DNA of 32,919 nt from a virus. Its lineage: Duplodnaviria > Heunggongvirae > Uroviricota > Caudoviricetes. Both the position numbers and the translations under genes were made by a program. Below, in pieces: positions 1-11,145 of this stretch. The notes beneath the pieces were generated by a model that was not told the origin of the DNA, did not search any database, and worked only from the letters and a program-made list of their open reading frames with translations. The DNA lies in the IMG/VR virus record IMGVR_UViG_2541047853_000004; one strand, written 5' to 3'. Position 1 is the first letter of the stretch. The number at the start of each line of letters is the position of its first letter.

Positions 1-1053
1 TTACGGGGTAATGCCAACCGCTGCCGCCACTTTGTCGCCACTTGGCAGCGTTGCCAGAGGATTGAAACGGAGCGCCGTTTCCAGATGATCCGGTGCTAGA
101 TGTGCGTAACGCATCGTCATTTTTATATCGTGGTGTCCGAGAATTTTTTGTAAGGCCAGAATGTTTCCACCCGACATCATGAAGTGCGCCGCAAACGTAT
201 GGCGCAGAACGTGTGTGAGTTGACCGCGAGGGAGCACGATAGACGTTTTTTCCATCACGGATAAAAATTGAAAATAGCAGTCTGTGAAGAAATTGAACCC
301 ATCAAGCGCCATGATCTCTTCGTAAAGCTCTTTACTGATAGGGATGCTTCTGTTTTTCTTCCCTTTCGTTCTGACAAAGGTAATTCGGTATTTGGTCACC
401 TGTGAGCGGGTAAGATTTACGGCTTCACGCCAGCGTGCGCCTGTGCTTAAGCATATCTTAACTACCAGTGCCAGAATTGGGTCCTGACGTTTGCAATCAG
501 CCAGCAATTCAACAATCTGCTCATGGGTAAGCCATGCCATCTCTTTTTCTGCGATGGTGAATTTTCGCATGTTCTCCAGTGGGTTCGGATACGACCATTC
601 GCCCAGACGGGATAGTTCGCTAAAAACACTACTTAGATAGCTTTGCTCCAGGTTAATGGTGACCGGGCTGGCTCCTTTCTTCCATTTCTCGCTGAAGTAG
701 ATCTCACCTGTCAGTCGTTTATCTCGATAATGGGCAAACATTTTAGATGTGAGATCGGTTGCAAGGGGATTGCCCAGAGCGTCAACCATCAGCAGCAATT
801 TGTCATAGACATGCTGCCCAGCAGTCAGAGATTTACCATGTAGTTTGAACCATAGTTCAACCACGTCTTTCAGTGTTCGACGATCCACTGATTCACCCAG
901 CCAGGGCTTTGCTTCGGTTTCTTCCATCGTGTGGCGCTCAAAAGCCAGAGCTTCGCCTTTGGTGGCGAATTGTTTACGCACACGACGCCCACTGCGTCCG
1001 GCGGGGTAACATTCGCAAAGCCATTTTCCTGTGGTGAGTTTTCGTACTGCCAT
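1..1053 (-). CDS. int: tyrosine integrase, P2 Int-like
   Basis: 350-aa ORF starting MAVRKL (P2 Int starts MAIKKL by recall). C-terminal catalytic boxes VLRHTFAAH and MRYAHL are present. Start ATG is rc of 1051-1053. Confidence 0.9.
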   Translation of the reverse strand: MAVRKLTTGKWLCECYPAGRSGRRVRKQFATKGEALAFERHTMEETEAKPWLGESVDRRTLKDVVELWFKLHGKSLTAGQHVYDKLLLMVDALGNPLATDLTSKMFAHYRDKRLTGEIYFSEKWKKGASPVTINLEQSYLSSVFSELSRLGEWSYPNPLENMRKFTIAEKEMAWLTHEQIVELLADCKRQDPILALVVKICLSTGARWREAVNLTRSQVTKYRITFVRTKGKKNRSIPISKELYEEIMALDGFNFFTDCYFQFLSVMEKTSIVLPRGQLTHVLRHTFAAHFMMSGGNILALQKILGHHDIKMTMRYAHLAPDHLETALRFNPLATLPSGDKVAAAVGITP

Positions 1054-1054
1054 A

Positions 1055-1083
1055 AAAAATGCCCTCCAGTGGAGAGCATTTTT
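1055..1083 (-). terminator. candidate intrinsic terminator/attenuator immediately upstream of the int start codon
   Basis: Plus-strand aaaaatgccctcc-agt-ggagagcattttt forms a 13-bp stem with one mismatch, flanked by an A-run and a T-run. On the minus strand the U-run ends directly at the int ATG. Confidence 0.35.
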
Positions 1084-1131
1084 ACTGTATGTATAACCAG
1101 TGTCAATGTATGATGCTTGAGGTTACATACA

Positions 1132-1503
1132 TCATAAGTACCGATATGATTGCGGGGCCGTTATGTTATCACCTAATGAACTTAGATGAAGCGGTTGATC
1201 ATAGATTTTTAGATTGCCAATTTCTATAGCAAAGGCTTTTTCTTTGCTATGAAAATATGAGTCAAAAAATTGTTTGCTGATACCTGCGTATTGGCTTGTT
1301 TTTTCCCATACAATACTTGGCTTGTCTTCTATAACATCTGCAATGTCAAATTCAGCAACAACTTTACCGACAGGCATTGTTGAATAAATAACCACAGATT
1401 TTACATCCGGTTTTTTGAAAATTCCTTTTCGGAATTCAAATTTCTTTGTTCCATTAAGGATTTTTTCTACATGCTCTGGGTTAATTGACAATAATACTTT
1501 CAT
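1132..1503 (-). CDS. ASCH-domain (PUA-like fold) protein
   Basis: ORF beginning MKVLLSINPEHVEKILNGTKKFEFRKG...VVIYSTMPVGKVVAEFDIADVIED matches the ASCH pattern as I recall it. Visibly AT-rich. Preferred start is the internal ATG (rc of 1501-1503); the ORF track extends to a TTG at 1515. Overlaps the upstream gene stop. Confidence 0.6.
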   Translation of the reverse strand: MKVLLSINPEHVEKILNGTKKFEFRKGIFKKPDVKSVVIYSTMPVGKVVAEFDIADVIEDKPSIVWEKTSQYAGISKQFFDSYFHSKEKAFAIEIGNLKIYDQPLHLSSLGDNITAPQSYRYL

Positions 1504-2551
1504 TGACGCCACCAAGTTTAATAATGCTATTAAACTGTTCGTTTGTTAACTTCATGATCCCCCAGTAAGCTCGCGGGGATAATCCTACTTCAGAAATAAG
1601 TTTAGCACGATTTAGTCTTTTGGGCAAAGCAAGGTTATATGTAAAGCTTATAATATATGGGTATTTTTTTGTTCTATAAAAACTTTTAAGCTCAGATTCT
1701 GTAAAAACAGAATATCTAGAACAGTAATTTAGAAATTCTTTCTCTGTAACGAAAGAGTTTATATTTCTAACTTTTTCTACTACACATAAAGAAGTAGCAA
1801 CAGAACGGTAATATGCAGGCCCTTGATTATCGGATGTTCGGTATATAACGATTATATCGTTTGGCTTCATTAATTCAACATCTGACATGCCACAAATATA
1901 TACTTTTCTAATGCTATTTGCATATGATACATCAGCAACAACATCTGGTGACTCTGTAATTAATTTTGAGTCAGGGAATAAACGAGTATGAAATACGGGG
2001 TATATTGAAAGCAAGAATTTATTTTCACTGCCTCTGTTATTAATAAATGGATAATCTGACAGTATATCGCCCGTAAGAGCATTACTATTCATTTCTTTTA
2101 TTAGTACTCGCTCTACACCATTTTCAGATTCTTTTACTCCAATATCTATAAAGCCATAGATTTTGAATAGTCTAATTAAGTAGTCATGTTTTTCAAAAAC
2201 AGTCACATATATATTGTTAGCATTATTATCTAGAGCGTGATCGAATATTTTTTTTAAAAATCGTTGACCACGAAGAGTTCCTTTTGGATTAAATTTAAAT
2301 GTTCCAACTTTTAGATGAATACCATCAGGAATATTTGGTTTTGTATCTTCAATGATACCTACTTCTGTTTTTAGATACAAAAAACCATCAATTTTATTTT
2401 GTTCATCATAAAGGACATATGCATAATCATTTGATTTACATTTAGAATGGAACCAATCAATAAACCCATGAGCATAATCGGATTTTAAAGAGTCAAAAAA
2501 AACATCAGAAAAATCTACTTGATTAAAAGGTATGTATTTTAAGTTTTCCAT
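1481..2551 (-). CDS. hypothetical protein: N-terminal GNAT-like acetyltransferase fold fused to a C-terminal PUA/ASCH-like region
   Basis: 356 aa. N-terminal half has a GNAT-like core (LKVGTFKF...LRGQRFLKKIFDHALDNNANNIYVTVF...LFKIYGF). C-terminal half (IIVIYRTSDNQGPAYYRSVATSLCVVEKV...) resembles a PUA-like barrel. AGGA RBS lies 9 nt upstream; start is 2 bp from the upstream gene stop. Very AT-rich. Domain calls are by eye only. Confidence 0.5.
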   Translation of the reverse strand: MENLKYIPFNQVDFSDVFFDSLKSDYAHGFIDWFHSKCKSNDYAYVLYDEQNKIDGFLYLKTEVGIIEDTKPNIPDGIHLKVGTFKFNPKGTLRGQRFLKKIFDHALDNNANNIYVTVFEKHDYLIRLFKIYGFIDIGVKESENGVERVLIKEMNSNALTGDILSDYPFINNRGSENKFLLSIYPVFHTRLFPDSKLITESPDVVADVSYANSIRKVYICGMSDVELMKPNDIIVIYRTSDNQGPAYYRSVATSLCVVEKVRNINSFVTEKEFLNYCSRYSVFTESELKSFYRTKKYPYIISFTYNLALPKRLNRAKLISEVGLSPRAYWGIMKLTNEQFNSIIKLGGVNESIIVN

Positions 2552-2553
2552 GT

Positions 2554-3336
2554 TTACAATCCTATTTTAAAATCACATGATAAGCAAATTGATTTAGTTT
2601 TAGATATGACGGCGAGTGTTTTCCCCGGAGTTTGACAATTAGTACAAACATTCCAATTTTTCGGTTTTCCATCAATCTTATATATGTTGGCTAAAATATC
2701 ATCTAAAGGAAAAAATGTTTTCATCATGTCTATAATGCTTGCTGCATAGTTTTTCTTTGCCTCGACTAATTTTTGTTCAGGCATGTTTTTATCATTTATC
2801 AAGCAATGAACCAGGTTATTAAGAGGCTCTTGATATATCTCCTCTCGAAAAATTAGAAATGCACTTAAAAAGTCTTTACGTATTTCTTTATTATTACTTT
2901 TACCTAAGTGAATTACTTTATTTCTTTCTTTGCGCAAAATATCATAAATTTCATTAAAGCGCGGTGAAAGATTTCGCCCACTGATACTTTGTGCTATTCT
3001 ATGTAGCTCGGTTGCGTCTAATGTTGAACATTCGAAAAATGATTTGTTTTTATAGCAGTCTTTTACTTCTTTTAAAAGTAAATAAACACTATGCTCAGCA
3101 ATTATAGACTTTAGATATATTTCAGCAGAATTAAAGAGTATTACTAAGCCAGATTGAAAGAAACTCTCTTTTTCGGATATTAAGCGTTTCAGTCGTTGTT
3201 CTTCTGTTTCAGGTTGAGCTGGGGCTTGCAATAACTCAATGTCAGAATAAAAGTGTAAGTAGAATGTTTTAATGAAAAACTCAAGGTTCCTTTTGGCATA
3301 AAGAAGCATCTCTTCATTGTTAGGAAGGTCTGTCAT
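2554..3336 (-). CDS. hypothetical protein with HEPN-type Rx4H motif (RNKVIH) and C-terminal CxxC-x16-CxxC zinc ribbon
   Basis: 260 aa. Motif ILRKERNKVIHLG is encoded at 2908-2925 (rc AGA AAT AAA GTA ATT CAC). C-terminal CTNC...CLSC. Start ATG directly follows the cI stop (TAAATG on the minus strand) with an AAGGA RBS. Very AT-rich. Confidence 0.5.
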   Translation of the reverse strand: MTDLPNNEEMLLYAKRNLEFFIKTFYLHFYSDIELLQAPAQPETEEQRLKRLISEKESFFQSGLVILFNSAEIYLKSIIAEHSVYLLLKEVKDCYKNKSFFECSTLDATELHRIAQSISGRNLSPRFNEIYDILRKERNKVIHLGKSNNKEIRKDFLSAFLIFREEIYQEPLNNLVHCLINDKNMPEQKLVEAKKNYAASIIDMMKTFFPLDDILANIYKIDGKPKNWNVCTNCQTPGKTLAVISKTKSICLSCDFKIGL

Positions 3337-4293
3337 TTAAATATCCTTATATATACCAAAACATTTTGCTATTACATTAATATCCGCTAATAGACATTCA
3401 AAAGTTGTACTTTCATTAGATACTTTTACTTTTGCAATTGGAATTCTGGTTAGATCTCTAACACTAAATTTTCCTTCGATTTCAACTAACCATTTTCCAT
3501 CGGTTACTTCATCAAATGCTTTGTCTGCAAGATATACATTTCCTTCATCTACTATAGATATGGGGTTTTTCACCTTGCTGGGTAACATGGTTTTATCAAA
3601 AGGGAGATAATTTGTATCAAACAACATACCATTTATAACTTTTTTCCGTGTGATAGCAATAATATCGCTCTTAGCGTCTTCAAAGACGGGACCATTACCG
3701 GTTGTTAGCCACATTAATGAAGCTCCGGTTTCAAGTGCGCACTGGATGATCCAATCAGCTGGAAAGGTATCTCTCATGTAACGATTGGCTAATGTGCTTT
3801 TTGAAACACCAATGTGATCCGCTAGAGCTTGCCTTGTCTTAAATCCATAGGCGATAACTATTCGCTCGATTGCCGCTTTTCCTCCTTGATTAACCTCAAT
3901 GAGGCTCTCGTTCTTTCGGTGAGTATTGTTCTCATTTGGGGATTTTGTGTCTAAAGTGAGAGAATGAATCTCCTTACCATCTTTATGGTGGTTCTGTTCT
4001 GTATTATGTGTGACAGCCTCTACTGTGTTATCGGTACCAAATGCCAACCATTCAACCGACACGCCAGTTTCCATGCTGCAGATTATGACCCAGTCGGCAG
4101 GGAAGGTATCACGAGCATATCTGTTCGCCATTGTGCTTTGGGATATCCCTAAGTGGTTACAGAATGCTTGACGTGAAGTGAAGCCATAAGCTTTCAAAAT
4201 TCGGTCAATGACCTGTTGCCCTCCACGATTCTGCATGATTACAGTTTTCATTGCATCATCAACATGGCGAAATGTGATTTTGTGTGTTGACAT
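3337..4293 (-). CDS. cI: immunity repressor, 186 CI-type, with tandemly duplicated N-terminal HTH domain
   Basis: 318 aa. Two consecutive copies of the phage CI-repressor HTH signature (ILKAYGFTSRQAFCNHLGISQSTMANRYARDTFPADWVIICSMETGVSVEWLAFG and IVIAYGFKTRQALADHIGVSKSTLANRYMRDTFPADWIIQCALETGASLMWLTTG), then a C-terminal domain. Divergent from apl/cox. Confidence 0.8.
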   Translation of the reverse strand: MSTHKITFRHVDDAMKTVIMQNRGGQQVIDRILKAYGFTSRQAFCNHLGISQSTMANRYARDTFPADWVIICSMETGVSVEWLAFGTDNTVEAVTHNTEQNHHKDGKEIHSLTLDTKSPNENNTHRKNESLIEVNQGGKAAIERIVIAYGFKTRQALADHIGVSKSTLANRYMRDTFPADWIIQCALETGASLMWLTTGNGPVFEDAKSDIIAITRKKVINGMLFDTNYLPFDKTMLPSKVKNPISIVDEGNVYLADKAFDEVTDGKWLVEIEGKFSVRDLTRIPIAKVKVSNESTTFECLLADINVIAKCFGIYKDI

Positions 4294-6436: not shown

Positions 6437-7290
6437 GCACCATCCTGAAATGGGCGGGAAATAAAACCGCCATTATGGCAGAACTGAAAAAATACCTTCC
6501 TGCTGGCCCGCGACTGGTTGAACCTTTCGCGGGTTCCTGTGCAGTGATGATGGAGACGGATTACCCCAGCTATCTGGTTGCGGATATTAATCCTGATTTA
6601 ATCAACCTCTATAAAAAGGTTGCCGCTGATTGTGAATCGTTTATATCTCGCGCCAGAGTTTTATTTGAGAACGCAAACAGGGAGATGGCTTATTACAACA
6701 TAAGGCAGGAGTTTAATTACTCAACTGAAATTACTGATTTCATGAAAGCGGTATATTTCCTGTATCTCAATCGTCACGGTTACCGTGGTTTATGTCGCTA
6801 TAACAAGAGCGGGTATTTCAACATTCCCTACGGTAATTATAAAAATCCGTATTTCCCTGAAAAAGAAATTCGCGCATTTGCAGAGAAAGCCCAGCGGGCA
6901 ACGTTTATCTGCGCGAGCTTTGATGAAACGCTGGCGATGCTGCAGGTGGGGGATGTGGTGTATTGCGATCCGCCGTATGACGGTACGTTTTCCGGCTATC
7001 ACACTGATGGTTTCACTGAAGATGACCAGTATCACCTGGCATCCATTCTTGAACATCGGTCATCAGAAGGACATCCGGTCATTGTTTCTAACAATGACAC
7101 ATCCCTGATTCGTTCGCTGTATCGCAATTTTACTCACCACTATATCAAGGCAAAACGCAGCATCGGCGTGTCAGCTGGCGAGGGTAAATCTGCAACAGAA
7201 ATCATTGCTGTTTCCGGGCCGAGCTGCTGGTTGGGATTTGATCCTTCGCGTGGCGTGGATAGTTCTGCCGTGTACGGAGTGTGTGTATGA
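6433..7290 (+). CDS. DNA adenine methyltransferase (Dam-like, D12 class N6-MTase)
   Basis: [11 protein letters not shown] start, SAM-binding EPFAGS, catalytic DPPY ([12 protein letters not shown]). No adjacent restriction gene seen. ATG overlaps the upstream stop (ATGA). Confidence 0.85.
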
Positions 7291-9701
7291 GTCATGACGA
7301 TATGAACAATTGCAGCGGCTTTAACGAGGCCGCCGCAGCATTTTCATGGAACGGCTCGAAAAAGGCCATTAACCCTTATCTGGACCCGGCGGAAGTTGCG
7401 CCGGAGTCTGCACTTTCAAACCTGATCACTCTGTACGCTGCCGATAACGAGCAGGAACAACTGCGCCGCGAGGCACTGAGTGAGCAGGTCTGGGAGCGTT
7501 ATTTCTTTAATGAATCCCGTGATCCTGTCCAGCGCGAAATGGAGCAGGATAAGCTCATTAGCCGGGCAAAGCTGGCGCATGAGCAGCAGCGTTTTAATCC
7601 GGACATGGTCATTCTGGCGGACGTAAACGCCCAGCCTTCCCATATCAGCAAGCCGCTGATGCAACGTATTGAATACTTCAGCAGCCTGGGCAGGCCAAAG
7701 GCTTATTCCCGCTATTTGCGTGAGACGATTAAGCCATGTCTGGAGCGACTGGATTGTGTACGTGACAGTCAGCTATCTGTTTCTTTCCGTTTTATGGCAA
7801 GCCATCAAGGGCTGGAGGGGCTGCTGATCCTGCCTGAAATGAGCCAGGATCAGGTGAAACGCCTGTCCACCCTGGTAGCAGCGCATATGAGCATGTGTCT
7901 TGAGGACGCTTGTGGTGATTTGTATGCCACCGATGACGTTAAGCCAGAAGAAATCCGCAAGACATGGGAAAAGGTGGCAGCGGAAACCCTGCGTCTGGAT
8001 GTTATCCCGCCTGCGTTTGAGAAACTTCGTCGGAAAAGAAACCGCCGCAAACCAGTGCCCTATGAACTCATCCCGGGTTCGCTGGCGCGTATGTTGTGTG
8101 CCGACTGGTGGTATCGGAAATTATGGAAGATGCGTTGCGAATGGCGGGAAGAGCAGTTGCGTGCTGTCTGCCTGGTCAGCAAAAAAGCATCCCCCTATGT
8201 CAGCTATGAAGCCGTGATGCATAAACGTGAGCAGCGCCGTAAGTCGCTGGAGTTTTTTCGTTCTCATGAACTGGTGAACGAAGACGGCGACACGCTGGAT
8301 ATGGAAGATGTGGTAAACGCCAGCAGCAGCAACCCGGCGCATCGCCGCAATGAGATGATGGCCTGTGTTAAAGGTCTGGAGCTTATCGCGGAAATGCGCG
8401 GTGACTGCGCCGTTTTCTACACCATTACCTGTCCGTCACGTTTCCATTCCACGCTCAATAACGGCAGACCCAACCCGACCTGGAAAAACGCGACGGTAAG
8501 ACAAAGCAGCGATTATCTGGTCGGTATGTTTGCTGCATTTCGTAAGGCGATGCACAAAGCCGGGTTGCGCTGGTATGGCGTGCGGGTGGCTGAGCCGCAT
8601 CACGACGGCACAGTTCACTGGCACCTGTTGTGTTTCATGCGCAAAAAAGACCGCCGCGCCATTACTGCATTGTTGCGTAAGTTTGCTATCCGTGAAGACC
8701 GCGAGGAGCTGGGCAATAACACGGGGCCGCGCTTTAAGTCTGAGCTGATTAACCCGCGCAAAGGAACGCCGACAAGCTACATAGCGAAATACATCAGTAA
8801 GAACATTGACGGGCGTGGTCTGGCTGGCGAGATCAGCAAGGAAACGGGTAAATCTCTTCGTGATAACGCTGAATACGTGAATGCCTGGGCGTCTTTGCAT
8901 CGTGTTCAGCAATTCCGCTTCTTTGGTATTCCGGGGCGTCAGGCTTACCGTGAACTGCGATTGCTGGCTGGTCAGGCGGCAAGGCAGCAGGGTGACAAAA
9001 AAGCAGGTGTGCCGGTACTGGATAACCCGCGCCTTGATGCCATTCTGGCTGCTGCTGATGCTGGTTGTTTTGCCACCTATATCATGAAGCAGGGAGGTGT
9101 ACTGGTTCCCCGTAAATATCACCTCATCAGAACTGCTTATGAAATTAACGAAGAGCCGACCGCCTATGGCGATCACGGTATTCGTATTTATGGCATCTGG
9201 TCACCCATTGCAGAGGGCAAGATCTGCACTCATGCAGTGAAGTGGAAAATGGTTCGTAAGGCCGTTGACGTTCAGGAGGCGGCAGCCGACCAGGGCGCTT
9301 GCGCCCCTTGGACTCGTGGCAATAACTGTCCCCTTGCTGAAAATTTGAACCAACAGGAGAAAGATAAATCAGCTGATGGGGACCCCAGAACGGACATTAC
9401 CAGCATGGATGACAAGGAGTTGCACGATTACCTGCACAGTATGAGCAAAAAAGAGCGCCGGGAACTGGCAGCAAGGTTACGCCTGGTGAAACCGAAACGG
9501 CGTAAAGACTACAAACAGCGAATTACAGACCATCAGCGACTGCAGCTCGTGTATGAGCTGAAGTCCAGAGGATTTGATGGCAGCGAGAAAGAGGTCGATT
9601 TACTCCTTCGCGGAGGCAGTATTCCGTCAGGAGCAGGCCTGCGTATCTTCTATCGGAACCAGCGTTTGCAGGAAGATGATCAGTGGCGGAACCTGTATTA
9701 A
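7287..9701 (+). CDS. A: replication initiation endonuclease, P2 gpA-like (HUH rolling-circle)
   Basis: About 805 aa with HUH motif ([10 protein letters not shown]) and tyrosine motif (YIAKYISKN). Start ATGA overlaps the Dam stop. Confidence 0.85.
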
Positions 9702-9854: not shown

Positions 9855-10043
9855 ATGCAGGACTATTTTTTGGAGTCTTTGAAGCTCCAGCGCATTGATT
9901 TTTTTCTTAAGCTTGTAGCGGCTAGTGAGTGTAGTGATGAAGAGAAGGGGCTGGCTCTGCAGTGGGTTTCTGAATTGACTGATGAACTCATGGCAAAAAT
10001 CAGAACCCACGAATACAACCGCTCAATGGATGTCATCAGCTGA
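9855..10043 (+). CDS. small SOS-controlled protein, possible Tum-like antirepressor module
   Basis: 62-aa ORF (MQDYFLESLK...) with AGGAGG RBS at 9845-9850, directly downstream of the LexA box. Function inferred from position only. Confidence 0.45.
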   Translation: MQDYFLESLKLQRIDFFLKLVAASECSDEEKGLALQWVSELTDELMAKIRTHEYNRSMDVIS

Positions 10044-10053
10044 GGTGACTTTT

Positions 10054-10287
10054 ATGCGCATTGAAATAATGATCGATAAAGAGCAGAAGATTAGCCAGTC
10101 TACCCTGGACGCCCTTGAATCCGAGCTTTACCGCAATCTGCGCCCCCTGTATCCCAAAACGGTAATTCGCATTCGCAAAGGTAGCTCTAACGGTGTGGAA
10201 CTAACCGGACTGCAACTGGACGAAGAAAGAAAACAAGTGATGAAAATTATGCAGAAGGTGTGGGAAGACGACAGCTGGCTGCATTAA
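10054..10287 (+). CDS. DinI-family protein
   Basis: 77 aa; MRIEIMIDKEQKISQSTLDALESELYRNLRPLYPKTVIRIRKGSSNGVELTGLQLDEERKQVMKIMQKVWEDDSWLH parallels E. coli DinI as recalled. In the LexA-box operon. Confidence 0.7.
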   Translation: MRIEIMIDKEQKISQSTLDALESELYRNLRPLYPKTVIRIRKGSSNGVELTGLQLDEERKQVMKIMQKVWEDDSWLH

Positions 10288-10599: not shown

Positions 10600-11145
10600 A
10601 TGGACGTTATAACTGGAGTTGCAGAGTTTTTTCGAAAAGTACCTGCAGCATTTCTTGTGGCTATTACATGTGTTTTAGGTCTTATACTTTTTCTGCCAGA
10701 CTCTTTGGCAGTAAAAGTGGCTGTTGATGGCTTTCGTAATGAGTATAGGATTTTTATTGGACCTGCATTTTTACTGTCTGTATCTTATTTAGTTGCAAGA
10801 GTCTATCTCTCTTTCTATGACTTACTTGGTGAAAGGCAGGCTAAGAAGGTACGCACTTCCTACCTTGAGAAGCTAACAGCAGAAGAAAAAGGATATTTAA
10901 AGTCTTATATTACCGAAGGTGTTAATTCACTTATGTGTGGGCCTGAGGATGGGGTCATGGGGGGACTTGTGGCTAAGGGGATTACTTATAGAGCCACCAG
11001 TGTTGGGGATATGATCTACGGTTTTGCTTTCAACTTACAGCCATGGGCGCGTGAACATTTAGAGAAAAATAGTCATTTATTAGATGGGGCTATTGGGCGT
11101 GCAATGACTCCAAGAGAAAAATTAAACTTTAGATTGGGACGCTAA
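10600..11145 (+). CDS. AT-rich accessory membrane protein (two predicted N-terminal TM helices), candidate superinfection-exclusion/abortive-infection protein
   Basis: 181 aa with GGAGG RBS. Hydrophobic segments AAFLVAITCVLGLILFLP and IFIGPAFLLSVSYLVARVYL. Visibly lower G+C than flanking genes. Sits between the A/cos region and Q. Confidence 0.5.
   Translation: MDVITGVAEFFRKVPAAFLVAITCVLGLILFLPDSLAVKVAVDGFRNEYRIFIGPAFLLSVSYLVARVYLSFYDLLGERQAKKVRTSYLEKLTAEEKGYLKSYITEGVNSLMCGPEDGVMGGLVAKGITYRATSVGDMIYGFAFNLQPWAREHLEKNSHLLDGAIGRAMTPREKLNFRLGR

Follow-up and report, generated by a model that had tools for sequence, protein, structure and literature searches.

The DNA analyzed here, hereafter the window, is the IMG/VR virus record IMGVR_UViG_2541047853_000004 (32,919 nucleotides; Duplodnaviria; Heunggongvirae; Uroviricota; Caudoviricetes), a 186-like prophage of Escherichia coli. 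Between its cI repressor and its integrase (int) lie three genes that we call g1, g2 and g3, in the order cI-g1-g2-g3-int, and that encode a HEPN-zinc-ribbon protein, a fusion of a GNAT domain with a PUA-like barrel, and an ASCH protein, respectively. We found that g2 and g3 belong to an already known candidate system, the GNAT-EVE/ASCH module, and that the trio is a new three-gene variant of it and not a wholly undescribed system. The features of the locus are as follows, in window coordinates.

2554-3336, minus strand: g1, 260 amino acids (aa); HEPN fold, Rx4H motif and zinc ribbon; predicted RNase; lineage-specific third component
1481-2551, minus strand: g2, 356 aa; fusion of a GNAT acyltransferase fold, at the N-terminus, with an ASCH/EVE-type PUA-like barrel, at the C-terminus; PDC-M11A, GevT-like
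1132-1503, minus strand: g3, 123 aa; stand-alone ASCH protein with a GxKxxExR motif; PDC-M11B, GevA-like
1450-1500, no strand: recombination breakpoint at the g2/g3 junction, from sliding-window identity with the Escherichia coli C2 prophage (locus L001)
3337-4293, minus strand: cI repressor, first gene of the leftward lysogenic operon; context, outside the module; Pfam PF07022 (9.6e-58, two stretches) and PF16452 (6.7e-31)
1-1053, minus strand: tyrosine integrase, Pfam Int_N and Phage_integrase; downstream boundary of the cargo slot
1054-1131, minus strand: g3-int spacer of 78 nt, with a promoter-like TTGACA-17-AAAAAT at 1106..1078

An earlier note, made from the letters of this DNA, had placed three minus-strand open reading frames (ORFs) here, tightly coupled and co-oriented with cI, and we recovered them at exactly the coordinates it gave, in the orientation of cI. 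The coupling can be read off the sequence at each junction: the TAA of cI directly abuts the ATG of g1, g1 and g2 are separated by a 2-bp gap (TAA-AC-ATG), and g2 and g3 overlap by 23 nt. The longest ORF of g3 starts at TTG 1515, and the start kept across 39 homologues is ATG 1503 (MKVLLSI). The low G+C content that the note had seen in the trio was also found, with values of 0.27-0.35 over positions ~1100-3600 versus 0.45-0.60 in the remaining window; this AT-rich block extends over the 3′ third of cI. Judged by their sequence, g1, g2 and g3 are real genes and not chance ORFs, because they form long intact reading frames in AT-rich DNA and have conserved homologues across many genera. A scan of the minus strand from cI to int revealed no terminator-like site, and read-through from the lysogenic promoter into g1-g2-g3 is therefore plausible.

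The predicted structure of the g1 protein, obtained by AlphaFold from an alignment of 20 homologues, has a predicted local distance difference test score (pLDDT) of 89.4 and a predicted template modelling score (pTM) of 0.87, and shows a helical HEPN fold. The protein carries the motif R138-N-K-V-I-H143, that is, Rx4H, in which R, N, V, I and H are invariant in 20 sequences down to 36% identity; four cysteines, C231, C234, C251 and C254, are likewise invariant in 20 homologues over the same range of identity. Because the model is confident and because the Rx4H motif and the four cysteines do not vary, g1 is, as modelled, a HEPN protein whose Rx4H motif is intact and whose C-terminal part is a zinc ribbon; the motif predicts an endoribonuclease activity. 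This protein has few recognizable relatives. Indeed, no family of Pfam, NCBIfam or PHROGs matched it, no solved structure was matched among PDB sequences, and no match was found in a collection of 50,697 phage records. In PADLOC, it gave weak matches to HEPN-type models only (DUF3644, 2.4e-5; HEC-08, 0.0024; and Csx1). The whole family consists of 24-26 clusters, with three representatives at 50% identity among 1.84 billion proteins, and g1 is carried by 28 of 5426 E. coli genomes, all copies being at least 99% identical. Some 350 remote relatives have the HEPN core alone in common with it and weakly match HEC-08, DUF3644, CARF_HEPN or PDC-S64. One of them, P0146 (320 aa, with a weak HEPN_RiboL-PSP match), is found on a metagenome scaffold (L046:260-5486) in an apparent operon with an SLFN_AlbA_2 protein, a 130-aa ORF and a 1021-aa NACHT protein. 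The g1 protein also differs from the HEPN-MNT (HepT-MntA) toxins and from the HEPN RNases of abortive infection (Csm6, LsoA/RnlA, HepS) by extra N-terminal helices and by the C-terminal zinc ribbon. We considered whether the locus is a HEPN-MNT type VII toxin–antitoxin (TA) system and rejected this identity, since the neighbors of g1 are cI and a GNAT-PUA gene, and no nucleotidyltransferase was matched in Pfam or PADLOC.

The architecture of g2, with a GNAT-like domain N-terminal to an EVE/PUA-like domain, is the one described by Bell, Wolf and Koonin (PMC7641849) for GNAT-EVE proteins. The protein matches the PADLOC model PDC-M11A (PDLC04419) over its full length (E 2.4e-130) as well as phrog_6345, and it retains the YGF of GNAT motif B. 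Its family is large, with more than 2613 clusters at 90% identity, and at least 309 of 5426 complete E. coli genomes have a detectable g2-like gene. Among the GNAT proteins, TacT, AtaT and KacT are the toxins of type II TA systems and acetylate aminoacyl-tRNA. Like them, g2 has a GNAT fold predicted to act on the translation machinery as a toxin; unlike them, it has a fused PUA-like domain, an altered acetyl-CoA loop, and an ASCH partner instead of a ribbon-helix-helix (RHH)/DUF1778 one. Assignment to the GNAT/RHH type II TA systems (TacAT, AtaRT, KacAT) was rejected on the latter ground, the partner being an ASCH protein with no DUF1778 match.

The g3 protein matches Pfam ASCH above the gathering cut-off (3e-05) and the PADLOC model PDC-M11B (PDLC04425) with an E-value of 4.9e-48, and aligns over its full length with ZmASCH (5GUQ; E 5e-8). 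The G, K, E and R of its GxKxxExR octapeptide are invariant in 39 distinct homologues. A 2026 preprint reports that ASCH proteins of this GKER type are tRNA N4-acetylcytidine (ac4C) deacetylases, in which the Lys and Glu of the motif are essential, and g3 carries this ac4C amidohydrolase motif with both predicted catalytic residues. Like the YqfB/TthASCH-type amidohydrolases and ZmASCH, g3 has the ASCH fold together with the GxKxxExR Lys and Glu. Unlike the YqfB/TthASCH enzymes, g3 is not a stand-alone housekeeping gene but lies in a mobile operon where it overlaps a GNAT-PUA gene. The removal of tRNA ac4C by ASCH proteins, together with the PUA-like domains typical of RNA-modifying enzymes (PMC7641849), would fit a housekeeping-type modification and turnover of RNA, where an ac4C writer, its eraser and an RNase tune host translation in lysogens with no role in conflict. 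We hold this to be highly improbable: the distribution of the genes is patchy and mobile (28 and ~309 of the 5426 E. coli genomes for g1 and g2, respectively), their DNA is poor in GC, occupies a hotspot and shows recombination mosaicism, and the conserved HEPN RNase motif is characteristic of toxins and of effectors of abortive infection.

The pair formed by g2 and g3 has been described before. Bell, Wolf and Koonin (2020; PMC7641849) reported that (PIN)-GNAT-EVE operons nearly always include an ASCH gene and often an AAA_17 ATPase, and that PIN-less GNAT-EVE genes are common in beta- and gamma-proteobacterial prophages; they predicted TA or defense roles for these operons, with no module yet characterized. 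HEPN is not mentioned in the text of this paper. In PADLOC, the pair is the phage-defense candidate PDC-M11 (A+B), both hidden Markov models being matched by adjacent genes. We found a single paper naming PDC-M11, as a prediction in an O157:H7 genome. Moreover, the lambdoid Escherichia phage PhiR47_2 (PV340567) carries homologues annotated "GevT toxin" (57% identical to g2) and "GevA antitoxin" (61% identical to g3), which come right after its cI, in the place of rexAB; in the literature, the PhiR47 phages appear solely in a preprint on another subject, the SNIPE nuclease. Thus, g2 and g3 are a described, catalogued and mechanistically unsolved pair, and only the HEPN-zinc-ribbon partner, hence the trio, appears to be undescribed. 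The earlier note had proposed a HEPN motif and a zinc ribbon for g1, a GNAT acetyltransferase fused to a PUA-like barrel for g2 and an ASCH domain for g3. The HEPN, GNAT and ASCH assignments were upheld, the fold and motifs of g1 were verified as described above, and the barrel of g2 proved to be of the ASCH/EVE type. Its further statement that no named system has such a composition falls for g2 and g3, which correspond to PDC-M11, to the operon of PMC7641849 and to GevT/GevA, and appears to hold for g1.

Compared with these systems, the window has the same domain architecture, the same overlapping gene pair and the same prophage setting as PDC-M11, GNAT-EVE + ASCH and GevT-GevA, but it adds an upstream, translationally coupled HEPN-zinc-ribbon gene that no PDC-M11 model covers. 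In PIN-GNAT-EVE + ASCH (+AAA_17) operons, GNAT-EVE is likewise preceded by a metal-independent or PIN-type RNase module, either fused at its N-terminus or encoded upstream, and is partnered by an ASCH protein; one of our loci (L045) also has an AAA_17 kinase. In contrast to the PIN fusions, the RNase of the window is a HEPN protein, made as a separate polypeptide with a zinc ribbon, and is found in prophages and islets and not in type I restriction–modification (RM) loci.

We then analyzed the linkage of the three genes. The g2 and g3 genes are adjacent in all 42 loci with a g2 homologue. The g1 gene is directly upstream of a GNAT-EVE gene in 13 of 13 loci inspected, inside and outside prophages (the window, L003, L005, L006, L007-9, L011, L045 and L053-56); in each of them, the g2 homologue starts between -34 and +2 nt from the g1 stop, with an ASCH gene alongside. 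Besides the window, the order cI-g1-g2-g3-int is found in 186-like prophages of Hafnia (L005), Pectobacterium (L053), Yersinia (L054) and Enterobacter (L056), and g1 is also linked to cI in Photobacterium (L003). Locus L008 lies downstream of a P4-like satellite, and phage-free islets carry the genes in Dickeya (L006), Enterobacter (L007, L009, L011) and Morganella (L055). Locus L045, which branches deeply, has four genes, with those for the AAA_17 kinase and the ASCH protein convergent. Nine further members of the g1 family may also share their contigs with g2 matches. In its genomic context, g1 is thus strictly dependent on the GNAT-EVE/ASCH pair, and the trio is mobile as a unit, in prophages, at the flank of a P4-like satellite and in chromosomal islets. 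In Photobacterium swingsii (L003:7889-10129), a convergent second set of genes follows cI-HEPN-GNAT-EVE, made of an ASCH (132 aa), a PUA-less GNAT (185 aa) and a 405-aa protein of the TM354 family presented below, which suggests that the modules can be combined.

The position upstream of g2 can be occupied by other genes. In other E. coli 186-like prophages inserted at the same site beside rcdA (L001 and L002), an unrelated 354-aa protein stands between cI and the GNAT-EVE gene (in L001, at 6583-7647 on the minus strand). The family to which it belongs, named TM354 here (354-405 aa), has two C-terminal transmembrane (TM) helices and no Pfam or PADLOC match. Relatives of TM354 (L010, L012, L014, L036, L029, L003) are found upstream of g2 in Brenneria, Raoultella, Scandinavium and Aggregatibacter, and near g2 in Vibrio and Photobacterium. 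We considered TM354 as a diverged g1 and rejected this idea, as BLASTP finds no similarity between them. Other genes tightly coupled upstream of g2 encode an AAA_17 P-loop kinase or a coiled-coil TM protein of 506-523 aa; in L039, the GNAT-EVE/ASCH pair abuts the Kiwa gene KwaB, and many GNAT-EVE/ASCH loci have no coupled upstream gene. In the tree of g2, HEPN-linked and TM354-linked genes are interleaved inside the Enterobacterales clade. The comparison of the window with L001, the E. coli C2 prophage, locates the exchange: identity is 96-100% from int through g3 and ~70% from g2 onward, g3 being 96.7% and g2 68% identical at the protein level. Since identity drops at the g2/g3 junction, the exchanged unit is the upstream partner together with g2, and these sequences indicate that one ASCH allele serves two diverged GNAT-EVE alleles.

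Such a variety of neighbors raises the question of whether g1 and the pair simply happen to be side by side. They could be two independent systems gathered in a cargo hotspot, a single-gene HEPN defense or toxin and a PDC-M11 pair, with no functional interaction. This would account for the unrelated proteins (TM354, AAA_17 kinase, coiled-coil TM protein) that fill the upstream position in sister loci, for the interleaved g2 tree, for the fact that most g2/g3 pairs are alone, and for the remote HEPN relatives found in other defense-like contexts such as the operon with the NACHT protein. We nevertheless regard it as quite unlikely. Indeed, in the 13 loci, which reach down to 34% g1 identity and lie in unrelated genomic surroundings, g1 always has g2 immediately downstream; the two genes keep their stop/start overlap or 2-bp gap; and the breakpoint with the TM354-type prophage, being at the g2/g3 junction, implies that g1 travels with g2.

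The location of the trio is itself informative. The earlier note had seen it as cargo inserted between cI and int, and related phages bear this out. In ESSI2_ev040, cI and int are adjacent and the slot is empty. In vB_EcoM-813R9, whose integrase is 100% identical to that of the window, the slot (L049:3242-4918, plus strand) holds a 558-aa protein annotated 'chromosome segregation ATPase' that matches the PADLOC PD-Lambda-1 model (3e-120). Because this PD-Lambda-1-like gene is what a sister phage has there, 186-like prophages have, from these sequence comparisons, a hotspot for defense cargo at their cI-int junction. That the three genes are core regulators of 186-like phages was rejected, as only 28 of 5426 E. 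coli genomes contain g1 and as relatives have an empty slot or other genes in it. GNAT-EVE/ASCH pairs also use other places. In SopEPhi, the pair lies between gpA/DinI and the portal gene (the gpA-portal hotspot), and in E. coli 536 and several lambdoid phages or prophages it directly follows the repressor, in the rexAB slot. The lambda rexAB genes are cargo in the same place, directly downstream of the repressor and co-oriented with it; their proteins are unrelated to those of the trio, and the likeness concerns position and expression logic only. Taken together, these placements argue for a conflict function expressed in the lysogen.

Several observations on the surroundings of the trio complete this description. 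The window has its own gpA-portal region, with the replication gene gpA at 7281-9701, a DinI-like gene at 9982-10287 (plus strand) and a SieB superinfection exclusion gene at 10600-11145 (plus strand; Pfam 4.5e-25); it is the same gpA/DinI-to-portal region that holds the GNAT-EVE/ASCH pair in SopEPhi. The cI repressor of the window has 318 aa, with tandem Phage_CI_repr helix-turn-helix (HTH) domains (~residues 21-90 and 140-203) followed by one CI_C; its relatives with a single HTH have 217 aa in L001 and 198 aa in vB_EcoM-813R9, and the RefSeq start gives 299 aa for the window protein. In derivatives of E. coli EC0880B (L052:1642-2988), an IS4 is inserted in the 78 nt that separate the ASCH gene from int; it leaves the three genes intact and probably uncouples int from upstream transcription.

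With moderate confidence, we favor the view that this 186-like E. coli prophage uses its variable cI-int slot to carry a three-gene form of the GNAT-EVE/ASCH module, as cargo expressed in the lysogen. The folds, motifs, coupling, linkage and mobility set out above were shown by our analyses; as to chemistry, target, trigger and phenotype, we infer the following scheme. The g2 protein would be a toxin-type acyl writer, whose PUA-like domain would dock on RNA, most likely tRNA, for the GNAT domain to acylate. The g3 protein would be the antitoxin against g2, possibly by hydrolyzing the mark as GKER-type ASCH proteins reportedly do for tRNA ac4C; by analogy with these proteins, the idea that the pair writes and erases an acetylation is plausible. 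The g1 protein would be an added RNase effector, the positional equivalent of PIN in the PIN-GNAT-EVE fusions and interchangeable with a membrane protein. Upon infection, activation of the module would lead to growth arrest or abortive infection and superinfecting phages would be excluded, a function analogous to that of rexAB below the lambda cI.

A number of points weigh against this scheme. First, more than 95% of GNAT-EVE/ASCH loci have no g1 (>2613 versus ~26 clusters; 309 versus 28 E. coli genomes), which means that the core works without it. Second, the acetyl-CoA loop of g2 reads RGQRFL and not the canonical (Q/R)xxGx(G/A), so that the use of acetyl-CoA by this protein is a conjecture. 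Third, the chemistry of ASCH proteins is contested, since ZmASCH, the closest solved relative of g3, is called a single-stranded RNA ribonuclease in a title of the PMC7641849 reference list; the authors of PMC7641849 themselves favor DNA binding for the ASCH partner. Fourth, PDC-M11 is a candidate, whose toxicity, neutralization and protection against phages are all predictions or annotations, and literature searches returned no experimental paper on GevT/GevA, GNAT-EVE or PDC-M11. Finally, PMC7641849 suggests counter-defense for the prophage GNAT-EVE genes, which would protect phages against host RM.

This last proposal is one form of an explanation in which the module serves the phage and not host immunity, either as an addiction TA that stabilizes the prophage or as a counter-defense or modification that evades host restriction. 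The reading of modified bases by EVE and ASCH domains (PMC7641849) would suit the latter, and pure addiction would agree with the TA-type annotation in PV340567. We consider a phage-serving role unlikely, however, because two unrelated phage families have the genes in the same lysogenic operon as cI and not in early lytic operons, and because the trio also occurs in chromosomal islets free of phage genes and next to a P4-like satellite. The company of the module points the same way, KwaB adjoining the pair in L039 and the PD-Lambda-1-matching protein filling the same slot of the sister phage.

Returning to the three-gene, lysogen-expressed variant that we favor, a broader form of it can be put forward tentatively. 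The GNAT-PUA/ASCH pair might be a conserved writer/eraser core that controls interchangeable effectors, namely the HEPN RNase, TM354, a fused PIN, the AAA_17 kinase or the coiled-coil TM protein, and an acyl mark placed on RNA or on the effector could be the switch. For a mark on the effector, an analogy exists, as MNT AMPylates HEPN toxins. Such a core would constitute an unrecognized modular immune architecture, and the HEPN trio its first defined three-component form; we have low confidence in this generalization.

GNAT-EVE/ASCH pairs are widespread, with more than 2600 protein clusters, and at least 6% of complete E. coli genomes have one, among them those of strain 536 and of O157:H7 strains. 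Two unrelated families of temperate phages carry such pairs in their lysogenic operons, and we found no published mechanism for them. The trio offers both a mutable effector, through the Rx4H motif of its HEPN protein, and a natural swap series at one locus, where the upstream position is taken by a HEPN protein, a membrane protein or nothing, and the function of the core pair thereby becomes experimentally tractable. If it is true that the ASCH protein erases an acyl mark written by the GNAT protein, these pairs would be writer/eraser TA systems acting on nucleic acids, with a logic comparable to that of DarTG.

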